IMG/VR virus record: IMGVR_UViG_2740892431_000001 | DNA length: 6,963 nt | Direction: 5' to 3' (one strand) | DNA from: a virus | Lineage: Duplodnaviria > Heunggongvirae > Uroviricota > Caudoviricetes | In this document: piece by piece, positions 565-6,947 of the stretch | How the letters are laid out: the number at the start of each line of letters is the position of its first letter | Numbering within the stretch: position 1 is the first letter of the stretch | Position numbers and translations under genes: made by a program | Notes under the pieces: model-generated | Database searches by the model: none | What the model saw: only the letters and a program-made list of their open reading frames with translations | Told to the model about the DNA's origin: nothing

Positions 565-585
565 CTTTAGTGATGAAGGGTAAAG

Positions 586-918
586 TTAAACGATGCTGAT
601 TGCCGTTCCGGCAAACGCGGTCCGTTTTTTCGTCTCGTCGCTGGCAGCCTCCGGCCAGAGCACATCCTCATAACGGAACGTGCCGGACTTGTAGAACGTC
701 AGCGTGGTGCTGGTCTGGTCAGCTGCAACAGCCAGAATGCCAACGGCAGCACCGTCGGTGGTGCCATCCCACGCAACCAGCTTACGGGTGGCGGTGTCAA
801 GCATCAGCGGAGTCATTGCAGGCGCTTTCGCACTCAATCCGCCGGGCGCGGTTGCGGTATGAGCCGGGTCACTGTTGCCCAGCGGCTGGTAATGGGTAAA
901 GGTTTCTTTGCTCGTCAT
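586..918 (-). CDS. D: Head decoration protein gpD (110 aa)
   Basis: ORF 586..924; the likely true start is the second ATG at 918..916 ([12 protein letters not shown]...), with stop TAA at 588..586. The protein is recognisable as lambda gpD, and there are 9 nt between the C stop and the D start as in lambda. Confidence 0.9.
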
Positions 919-927
919 AAACATCCC

Positions 928-1533
928 TTACACTGGTGTGTTCAGCAAATCGTTAACGGCATCAGATGCCGGGTTACCTGCAGCCAGTGGTGCCGGTGCA
1001 CCCTGCATCAGACGATCCAGCGCAGTGTCACTGCGCGCCTGTGCACTCTGTGGTGCTGCGGCCAGAATGCGGCGGGCCGTTTCCACGGTCATTCCGGGGG
1101 TTTCTGCCAGCACGCGCGCCTGTTCTTCGCGTCCGTGAGCCTCCTCACAGTTGAGGATCCCCATAATGCGGCTGTTTTCTGCCGCAACCGCTGCGGTGAT
1201 CTGCGCGTTCACGTCCGGCTGCGCCGCGCTGGCGTTTTCGCCCTCCGTCGCTTGCACCACGTCAGTAACGTCAGCCTGCGAAGCGGTGGCTGAAACAGTT
1301 GTTGATTGAGTCTCTTTGGTCATTCGCCCTCCTGAGAGACGGGATTTACGTGCATCCAGTGCATCACGCATGACGGTGATCGCATCGGTGCTGTTAACAA
1401 GTTCATCAGCCAGTCCGGCATCAATGGCCTCCTGACCGCTGTACACTGCAGCCTCGGTATCCAGCACAGCCTGCACGGACAGGCCGGTATATGCCGACAC
1501 CTTCTGCGCAAACATCCGGCGGGTTGCATCCAT
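928..1533 (-). CDS. Nu3: Capsid scaffolding protein gpNu3 (201 aa), translated from an internal in-frame start within the C reading frame
   Basis: ATG at 1533..1531 gives MDATRRMFAQKVSAYTGLSVQ... through to the shared stop at 930..928. In lambda Nu3 is the in-frame C-terminal part of the C ORF. It lies downstream of all four duplications and so is intact. Confidence 0.8.
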   Translation of the reverse strand: MDATRRMFAQKVSAYTGLSVQAVLDTEAAVYSGQEAIDAGLADELVNSTDAITVMRDALDARKSRLSGGRMTKETQSTTVSATASQADVTDVVQATEGENASAAQPDVNAQITAAVAAENSRIMGILNCEEAHGREEQARVLAETPGMTVETARRILAAAPQSAQARSDTALDRLMQGAPAPLAAGNPASDAVNDLLNTPV

Positions 1534-1729
1534 CCGGGACTGCAGTGTCTCCCGGACGTCATCCGGAAGATGGCTGTAGGGGTTGCCATCCACCTTATGG
1601 CTGCCGCTGTAAATCAGCGTGATTTCCACGCCCTGTTTCTCCAGCGCAGCACCGTAATTACTGTGAGCCATCATGACGCCGATGGAGCCTGTCCGGGCGG
1701 TCTGCGTGACCAGACGCCGGGAGGCGGCA

Positions 1730-1905
1730 CTGGCAAGCAGCTGACCTGCGCTGCAGTTCATGTCATTGGCCAGCGCCCATACCGGCTTTATGTCACGCAC
1801 ACGGGCGATGATGTCAAGCTGGCAAGCAGCTGACCTGCACTGCAGTTCATGTCGTTGGCCAGCGCCCATACCGGTTTTATGTCACGCACACGGGCGATGA
1901 TGTCA
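1730..1905. repeat. Imperfect tandem duplication, 2 x 89 bp
   Basis: Unit at about 1730..1816 is repeated at about 1819..1905 (for example ggcaagcagctgacctgc at 1732 and 1821; gatgatgtca ending at 1816 and 1905). There are 3 mismatches. The period of 89 is not a multiple of 3. Both copies encode DIIARVRDIKPVWALANDMNCSAGQLLAS. Confidence 0.9.
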
Positions 1906-1919
1906 GCGCAGTCAAATGC

Positions 1920-2030
1920 CCCTGCCACCATCCCGCCTGGCGTATCCATATCGAGCAGAATGCCGTCCACCATCATCCCTGCCACCATTCCGCCGGGCGT
2001 GTCCATATCGAGCAGAATGCCGTCCACCAT
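1920..2030. repeat. Imperfect tandem duplication, period 57 bp (in frame, 19 codons)
   Basis: ccctgccaccat...gccgtccaccat at 1920..1973 is repeated at 1977..2030, with 3 mismatches. Both copies encode MVDGILLDMDTPGGMVAG, and ORF 1788..2159 reads ...GGMVAGMMVDGILLDMDTPGGMVAGAFDC... Confidence 0.9.
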
Positions 2031-2095
2031 CGGGTCACTGGCAGCCTGTTGCAGACGGGCGATAATGCCGTTGTAACCGGTCATCCCCGAATAAG

Positions 2096-2223
2096 GCTGC
2101 AGCGCCCGCGTCCGGCTGACCAGCGTACCGGACACCGGCAGCACGGCGATGCCGTTCACGGCTGCAGCGCCCGCGTCCGACTGACCAGCGTGCCGGACAC
2201 CGGCAGCACGGCGATGCCGTTCA
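2096..2223. repeat. Imperfect tandem duplication, 2 x 65 bp
   Basis: gctgcagcgcccgcgtcc begins at 2096 and again at 2161; gcgatgccgttca ends at 2158 and 2223. There are 2 mismatches. The period of 65 is not a multiple of 3. Both copies encode (V)MNGIAVLPVSGTLVSRTRALQP. Confidence 0.9.
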
Positions 2224-2252
2224 TGACCTGATAACTGCGGGCCTGCCGTGAT

Positions 2253-2386
2253 CGTGGTCCGTCGCCATCACCGACTAACGCCAGCGTCGCGGGTGCCTCT
2301 CCGGCAGTCAGGCTGTCACCGTGGTCCGTCATCATCAACGGATAACGCCAGCGCCGCGGGTGCCTCTCCGGCAGTCAGGCTGTCGC
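2253..2386. repeat. Imperfect tandem duplication, 2 x 67 bp, the most diverged pair
   Basis: cgtggtccgtc begins at 2253 and again at 2320; gggtgcctctccggcagtcaggctgtc begins at 2291 and again at 2358. There are about 7 mismatches. The period of 67 is not a multiple of 3. The copies encode DSLTAGEAPATLALVGDGDGPR and DSLTAGEAPAALALSVDDDGPR. Confidence 0.85.
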
Positions 2387-2511
2387 CGGATACCGCATCC
2401 GTCAGGCGGCTGATCCCAAGCTGGCCTGCAAGCGCACAAAAGAAAACCCGCGCATAGGCGGGTTCAAGCATCAGCGGCTCATTAAAGGCCATACTGGTAA
2501 TATGCGGGAGA

Positions 2512-6212
<3,701 letters not shown>

Positions 6213-6238
<26 letters not shown>

Positions 6239-6758
6239 TCAGCAACCCCGGTATCAGTTCATCCAGCGCGGCTGCTTTGTTCATGGCTTTGATGATATCC
6301 CGTTTCAGGAAATCAACATGTCGGTTTTCCAGTTCCGGAAAACGCCGCTGCACCGACAGGGGGATCCCGTCGAGAATACTGGCAATTTCACCTGCGATCC
6401 GCGACAACACGAAAGTACAGAATGCGGTTTCCACCACTTCAGCGGAGTCTCTGGCATTCTTCAGTTCCTGTGCGTCGGCCTGCGCACGCGTAAGTCGGTG
6501 GCGTTCGTACTCAATAGTCCCTGGCTGGAGATCTGCCTCGCTGGCCTGCCGCAGTTCTTCAACCTCCCGGCGCAGCTTTTCGTTCTCAATTTCAGCATCC
6601 CTTTCGGCATACCATTTTATGACGGCGGCAGAGTCATAAAGCACCTCATTACCCTTGCCACCGCCTCGCAGAACGGGCATTCCCTGTTCCTGCCAGTTCT
6701 GAATGGTACGGATACTCGCACCGAAAATGTCAGCCAGCTGCTTTTTGTTGACTTCCAT
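6213..6758 (-). CDS. Nu1: Terminase small subunit gpNu1 (181 aa; cosB-binding subunit)
   Basis: ORF 6213..6758 (MEVNKKQLADIFGASIRTIQNWQEQGMPVLRGGGKGNEVLYDSAAVIKWYAERD...) is recognisable as lambda Nu1. ATG at 6758..6756, stop TAA at 6215..6213. Confidence 0.95.
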
Positions 6759-6782: not shown

Positions 6783-6894
6783 AGAAAGGAAACGACAGAG
6801 GCCAAAAAGCTCGCTTTCAGCACCTGTCGTTTCCTTTCTTTTCAGGGGGTATTTTAAATAAAAACATTAAGTTACGACGAAGAAGAACGGAAAC
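6783..6894 (-). promoter_or_regulatory. cosB: cosB: the three gpNu1 binding elements R1 (6783..6794), R2 (6828..6839) and R3 (6883..6894)
   Basis: Plus strand has agaaaggaaacg at 6783..6794, cgtttcctttct at 6828..6839 and agaacggaaacg at 6883..6894. These are the lambda R-site 12-mers (CGTTTCC(T/G)TTCT), with R2 inverted relative to R1 and R3, at lambda-like spacing upstream of Nu1. Confidence 0.85.
6846..6880. promoter_or_regulatory. AT-rich segment between R3 and R2, where the IHF site I1 of cosB sits in lambda
   Basis: gtattttaaataaaaacattaagttacgacg is strongly AT-rich and lies between R2 and R3. The exact IHF core cannot be fixed without a motif scan. Confidence 0.45.
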
Positions 6895-6935: not shown

Positions 6936-6947
6936 AGGTCGCCGCCC
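6936..6947. other. cosN: cosN: the 12-nt cohesive-end sequence (GGGCGGCGACCT on the minus strand), here joined to right-end sequence
   Basis: Plus strand 6936..6947 is aggtcgccgccc, the reverse complement of the lambda left-end 12-mer. It is followed at 6948..6963 by cgtaacctgtcggatc, which reverse-complements to a sequence ending ...ACAGGTTACG, my recollection of the lambda right terminus. Confidence 0.85.

Follow-up and report, generated by a model that had tools for sequence, protein, structure and literature searches.

The locus analysed here raises the question of how a phage head gene came to hold adjacent pairs of nearly identical segments, whose copies differ at few bases, in a reading frame that is interrupted. 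The window, that is the whole stretch of 6963 nt that was analysed, carries the DNA-packaging and head genes of a lambda-type module, all read from the minus strand: Nu1, A, W, B, C/Nu3, D and the start of E. The pairs lie in gene C. In the first-pass annotation they had been read as a pair of lambdoid C alleles, both functional and slightly diverged, that were placed in tandem either by bubble linearisation in assembly or by recombination.

Gene context of the window

The genes of the module were located as follows.

6213-6758, minus strand: Nu1 (open reading frame list)
4313-6238, minus strand: terminase A (open reading frame list)
4110-4316, minus strand: W (open reading frame list)
2512-4113, minus strand: portal B (open reading frame list)
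928-2531, minus strand: C/Nu3, the S49 head maturation protease with the nested Nu3 scaffold frame (synteny with phage PhiR49_1; PF01343)
586-924, minus strand: D (open reading frame list)

The order Nu1-A-W-B-C-D-E, with C between portal B and D, was found in the open reading frame list, in PhiR49_1 and in the related loci L002-L011. Many lambdoid phages share 97-98% identity with this region, which is present in 3335 of the 5426 complete E. coli genomes. The lengths of all genes of the window are normal in comparison with related prophages, except that of C. The 12-nt lambda cohesive end (reverse complement of GGGCGGCGACCT) was observed near the right end at 6936-6947. The sequence runs past it, indicating that the DNA was in a joined form (prophage, circular or concatemer). 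An imperfect 25-nt inverted repeat was also observed just upstream of Nu1 (6783-6839), and presumably resembles the cosB terminase-binding repeats.

Alignment to PhiR49_1 revealed that gene C as written carries 284 extra nt in four insertions of 89, 57, 65 and 73 nt, and its raw translation ends after 71 codons (71 aa). An uninterrupted frame of about 439 codons was lacking in the raw window and was recovered once either set of copies was deleted. The window was split in this way into two haplotypes of 6679 nt each, one retaining the R copies and the other the O copies of the pairs, and both were found to encode an intact 439-aa S49 peptidase. The Peptidase_S49 domain (PF01343) was detected on the reconstructed protein with E = 5.5e-44 and on the 313-aa remnant reading frame at 928-1869 with E = 2.9e-44. 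Gene C is thus an ordinary lambda gpC-type S49 protease. Both reconstructed proteins have exact matches in public data, the R-type protein P0001 on 54 contigs and the O-type protein P0002 on 16 contigs; P0002 was recorded from Logan and ENA assemblies only and from none of the NCBI genomes. The DNA identity of the reconstructed alleles with lambdoid phages and prophages is 97-99.9%. The exact-protein look-up gave no match for the aberrant 313-aa and 123-aa reading frames. As a separate observation, the C gene at 13708-15028 of L011 (ENA ERZ28752576 contig_9176) is split by one extra C into reading frames of 65 and 361 aa; a homopolymer-type sequencing error is the probable cause, and this false pseudogene differs in kind from that of the window.

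Tandem pairs and their differences

The three tandem pairs of 89, 57 and 65 nt described earlier were also detected by TRF at 1730-1905, 1920-2031 and 2095-2223, with 2.0 copies each and 94-96% matches. A fourth pair of period 67 was revealed directly downstream of the first three by a repeat search and by TRF (2253-2388; copies 2252-2317 and 2319-2384). Within the units as they had first been drawn, all eight differences between copies are silent third-position changes in the natural C frame: AAG/AAA (Lys154), AAT/AAC (Asn161) and AGC/AGT (Ser166) in the 89-nt pair, GAT/GAC (Asp131), CCA/CCC (Pro133) and GGG/GGA (Gly135) in the 57-nt pair, and GGC/GGT (Gly89) and AGT/AGC (Ser93) in the 65-nt pair. 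For random substitutions in this stretch 25% are expected to be silent, which gives P ~1.6e-5 for eight of eight; when transitions alone are counted, P = 1.4e-4.

The true units were found to start one base to the left, at 1729/1818, 1919/1976 and 2094/2159, and each thereby gains one variant base. Two of these first-base variants are silent (Ser173 and Pro100), while the one at 1919/1976 (GCA/ACA) is the non-silent change Ala140Thr. The fourth pair carries seven differences with four amino-acid changes (A60T, S64V, V65G and D67G). The claim that the copies differ only at silent positions therefore holds inside the units first drawn and fails for the structure as a whole. Likewise, the statement that both copies encode identical peptides is correct there in the natural frame, but as written C stops after 71 codons.

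Two natural alleles of gene C

In every pair one copy is the natural allele R (found in L003 and L022) and the other the natural allele O (found in L002 and L023), position 2264 apart. The loci L022 and L023 are two separate prophages of the complete chromosome of E. coli AF3 (NZ_OZ547117.1). Both reconstructed C genes found their best match on this chromosome and aligned to it as a single piece without gaps: R with 99.9% identity at 938 kb and O with 99.7% at 5040 kb. At 17 of 17 shared variant positions R agrees with L022 and O with L023; the G at 2264 of the window alone is private. The copies thus differ at allelic sites and one private site, and removal of either set restores a single-copy gene whose 439-aa protein is exact in public data at 99.7-99.9% DNA identity. 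The two loci L002 and L003 also come from a single assembly (GCA_964046385.1); genomes with two such prophages surfaced in an exact-protein look-up of the terminase. The prophage region is present in multiple copies in E. coli, with 4915 places in 3340 genomes and up to 7 per genome. Natural mosaics of R and O exist as well, L008 being O, R, O and R over the four places of difference.

As the copies equal natural alleles at 17 of 17 sites, duplication followed by drift is ruled out, and the earlier argument against drift in a pseudogene is borne out. Purifying selection on the gene, in which the variants are ordinary polymorphisms, explains the bias towards silent sites. The proposal of two functional, diverged C alleles is likewise supported, since each copy equals a natural allele segment, each haplotype is intact at 439 aa with exact public matches, and the two alleles are found in two prophages of AF3 and likewise of GCA_964046385.1.

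Among the matches listed for 93 phage and 3349 E. coli records, none of the four insertions that make up the 284 extra nt was found; in all of these listed matches the 1261-nt query maps onto 977 nt in 5 pieces. The 35-mers spanning the junctions are absent from all fetched loci, and the 36-mer of the first junction (J1) does not occur in the searched collections of viral, genome and metagenome contigs. The truncated 71-aa C matched ten NCBI draft E. coli contigs (DA accessions, L012-L021), all of which stop at 2320, one base short of the C/T variant at 2319 where the two alleles fork in the fourth pair. This indicates that other assemblers stop at the same fork, and assemblies of genomes with two lambdoid prophages repeatedly break at 2320. 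Most contigs bearing this terminase are only 2-10 kb long, which is typical of a repeat common to two prophages.

Junction geometry and rebuilding of the sequence

The geometry of the junctions was then compared with that of a de Bruijn graph built from both alleles, in which each cluster of variants forms a bubble with an R and an O branch. The elements of the four bubbles are given below (no strand is assigned to them; the loci named carry the branch exactly).

1729-1816: bubble 1, allele R branch; variants at 1729, 1750, 1765 and 1786 plus 30 shared nt; L001, L003, L022
1817: separator 'A'; natural base G
1818-1905: bubble 1, allele O branch; L002, L004-L011, L023 and others
1906-1918: common stretch between bubbles 1 and 2; 13 nt, that is 43 nt between variants minus k-1 = 30
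1919-1974: bubble 2, allele R branch; variants at 1919, 1932, 1938 and 1944 plus 30 nt
1975: separator 'A'; natural base G
1976-2031: bubble 2, allele O branch; its first base is the Ala140Thr variant
2094-2157: bubble 3, allele O branch; variants at 2094, 2115 and 2127 plus 30 nt
2158: separator 'A'; same as the natural base
2159-2222: bubble 3, allele R branch; L003, L022
2246-2251: stub CCGTGA, 6 nt; first 5 nt of the bubble 4 R branch plus 'A'
2252-2317: bubble 4, allele O branch; 7 variants in 36 nt plus 30 nt; private silent G at 2264
2318: separator 'A'; natural base G
2319-2384: bubble 4, allele R branch; L001, L003, L008, L022

In all four pairs both copies start on a variant base (1729/1818, 1919/1976, 2094/2159 and 2252/2319) and end exactly 30 nt past the last variant base. 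At all four junctions the first copy is followed by one 'A' (1817, 1975, 2158 and 2318), where the natural bases are G, G, A and G, so that at three of the four it matches neither allele. Between the pairs, the single-copy stretches measure 13, 62 and 23 nt, in each case the distance between the flanking variants less 30. The starts on variant bases and the 30-nt tails correspond to branches of k = 31 written serially, with the prefix of k-1 = 30 nt removed and a 1-nt placeholder between them.

This rule was applied to the two haplotypes by building the k = 31 bubble branches, trimming the k-1 prefix and inserting an 'A' separator. The rebuilt sequence equals the window minus 2246-2251 with no mismatch, that is 6957 of 6963 nt. 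In a graph simulation, the two haplotypes were turned into a forward de Bruijn graph, which was then linearised by following successors in the order A, C, G, T. At k = 31 the simulation reproduced positions 1-2246 of the window exactly, including the branch order of bubbles 1-3. A length of 6957 nt was obtained at k = 31 alone, the lengths for k = 29-33 spanning 6949-6965 nt. The boundaries of the copies follow an assembler parameter, as seen in the 30-nt tail in four of four pairs, in the rebuild and in the value of k, unique among 29-33. The break in the C frame is attributable to the artefact rather than to the gene.

At the junctions the sequences do not overlap by k-1, so these joins are no edges of the graph; they stem from a layout or write-out step. 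The separator 'A' would be either a 1-nt gap turned into A or the corrupted last base of a k = 32 branch. Two earlier models of the junctions were discarded. Full branch unitigs with both k-1 flanks, which predict a period of span + 2(k-1), failed for the 57-nt pair and were replaced by the prefix-trimmed model. The 2-nt 'fillers' (AG, AT) seen at junctions 1 and 2 are really the separator 'A' and the genuine O-allele variant base. It was also observed that the natural base under the 'A' is G wherever it was replaced (four of four: 1817, 1975, 2251 and 2318), which could be chance in a G+C-rich gene or could reflect a bit-level encoding fault rather than a conversion of N to A.

Proposed origin of the pairs

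The tandem pairs are very probably a heterotype false duplication, that is an artefact of assembly. The sample would have held two slightly different functional C alleles, R and O, most likely contributed by two lambdoid prophages that shared one E. coli genome. A k = 31 de Bruijn graph of such a sample would contain four bubbles, one for each cluster of variants less than 31 nt apart. The program, judged from the format of its output, would neither have picked one branch nor broken the contig; both branches would have been written in series. Each branch would have been written without the common 30-nt (k-1) prefix, beginning at the first variant base and extending 30 nt beyond the last variant, with one placeholder base, here 'A', parting the branches. 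The outcome would mimic four tandem duplications (89, 57, 65 and 67 nt) and a 6-nt stub, with the C frame falsely broken. The junctions are presumably absent from real molecules. Of the two ways of joining that had been offered, bubble linearisation is in accordance with the 30-nt tails and with the rebuild, while recombination would give neither this arithmetic nor a non-templated 'A'.

To our knowledge, no named program emits exactly such a format. Gaps in Velvet output are runs of 10 or more N, ABySS retains the k-1 flanks, SKESA gives variants in separate output, and with Minia/Logan contigs end at bubbles of this type; the window is an exact fit to none of these.

Without this correction, the record would pass for a defective prophage whose head protease is frameshifted and fragmented, when in fact both alleles in the sample are intact. 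The biological weight of the finding is small, but it has some practical use. Near-identical co-resident prophages act like heterozygosity for an assembler, and the pattern provides a checkable error signature for bacterial and metagenomic assemblies: a start on a variant base, an end k-1 nt past the last variant and a 1-nt separator.

Alternative explanations

The same artefact may also have arisen from a mixed sample, R and O coming from two strains or from a mixed phage population in a metagenome or a contaminated culture. The arithmetic of the graph is the same for either source of the alleles, the exact O-type protein P0002 is confined to Logan and ENA assemblies, and the stub-like third element at 2246-2251 might reflect the presence of additional sequences beyond the two. 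Against these points, co-residence of R and O in one chromosome is documented twice among the few genomes examined, and the region occurs at 4915 places in 3340 genomes, with up to 7 in one. Moreover, the branches were neither popped nor dropped, which would suggest a similar depth of both alleles, as with a 1:1 ratio in one genome. Given the frequency of co-residence, both alleles most likely came from one genome, and a mixed sample is regarded as rather unlikely.

Long-read consensus and polishing tools and gap-closing tools create small local duplications, and a product of this kind over a collapsed repeat was considered as another artefact. The single-base error of L011 shows that long-read-style errors do occur in the same gene. 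This explanation is improbable in view of the constant 30-nt tail, the start on a variant base in four of four pairs and the fact that k = 31 alone gives 6957 nt.

Recombination or template switching between co-resident prophages could in principle have produced four real hetero-allelic duplications in C, leaving a defective prophage; two diverged alleles do share single cells, and natural mosaics such as L008 occur. Four independent events would each need a 30-nt tail, a restart on an allelic difference and a non-templated A, and among the matches listed for the 3349 E. coli and 93 phage records none of the four was seen. Recombination between aligned alleles, moreover, yields mosaics and not duplications. 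A real structure is accordingly very improbable, and hardly any probability attaches to the version in which repeated template switching in the course of replication or repair made physically real duplications and the 30-nt regularity reflects a fixed minimal homology rather than the k of an assembler.

Ordinary slippage duplications in a decaying prophage gene, followed by drift through point mutation, would suit the broken, pseudogene-like frame but have a negligible probability, since the 17 shared differences equal natural alleles in position and base, the eight interior differences are all silent (P ~1.6e-5) and either copy set alone is an intact gene identical to known proteins.

The following readings were rejected as well. 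A true tandem duplication, by slippage or unequal exchange, does not agree with differences that equal natural alleles, with a non-templated A at three of four junctions and with the absence of the structure from the related records listed. Microhomology-mediated duplication was rejected with regard to the same non-templated A. A diversity-generating retroelement would show adenine-specific differences and a reverse transcriptase close by, but the differences run in both directions (A/G, G/A, C/T and T/G) and the window holds head-module genes only.

Relation to known systems

Divergent haplotype contigs placed at adjacent locations give the illusion of duplication (Kelley & Salzberg 2010, PMC2864568), and among the hallmarks of false duplication are gaps that separate the two members of a pair and k-mers specific to one haplotype (Ko et al. 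2022, PMC9516828). The window resembles heterotype false duplication in that both diverged alleles are kept side by side and mimic a recent duplication, the differences lie at allelic sites and a false gene structure results. The gap or placeholder between copies in that class may have its counterpart in the single 'A' at the four junctions, which is non-natural at three. Unlike the cases in those two studies, which concern diploid animal haplotypes and contigs of kilobases, the alleles of the window probably belong to two prophage copies in a haploid bacterium, and each of its units corresponds to one branch of a de Bruijn bubble, 56-88 nt long, trimmed by k-1 and parted from its partner by a 1-nt separator.

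In comparison with C/Nu3 of phage lambda, the gene has the same place between portal B and decoration D, and the reconstructed alleles are of 439 aa with the PF01343 domain (5.5e-44); the 284 extra nt and the stop after 71 codons are an artefactual difference. The window is also like the collapsed or broken repeat contigs in short-read assemblies of multi-prophage E. coli, sharing the fork at 2319/2320 with at least ten NCBI drafts. Those assemblers halt at the fork, whereas the program behind the window went on and wrote both branches.

Residues outside the rule

Apart from the stub CCGTGA at 2246-2251, the rebuilding rule reproduces the whole window. The stub forms no separate node in a strict de Bruijn graph, as its k-mers belong to the R branch. 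The insertion is absent from 5426 complete E. coli genomes, where the best match (94.1%) has a 6-nt gap and one mismatch. A 6-nt insertion allele in pair 4 was considered for it; being absent from the 5426 genomes, the element was reread as a 5-nt stub with an 'A' before a clean 66-nt branch. The branch order of bubble 4 also departs from the A, C, G, T order of bubbles 1-3.

Position 2264 in the O branch of bubble 4 is G (silent, Gly67 GGC) and A in all natural alleles examined. The branch with this G has no exact match in the 5426 complete E. coli genomes or in the viral or metagenome contigs. The G is either a private variant or an error.

Outside the bubbles (584-3277), the backbone was observed to alternate between the two AF3 prophage types at isolated variant sites, being O-type at 584, 628, 2037 and 2674-3155 and R-type at 2391-2611 and 3277. 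It may be conjectured that small bubbles (at most 37 k-mers) were popped and larger ones (at least 56) written out; the switching could also be natural mosaicism of the kind seen in L008.
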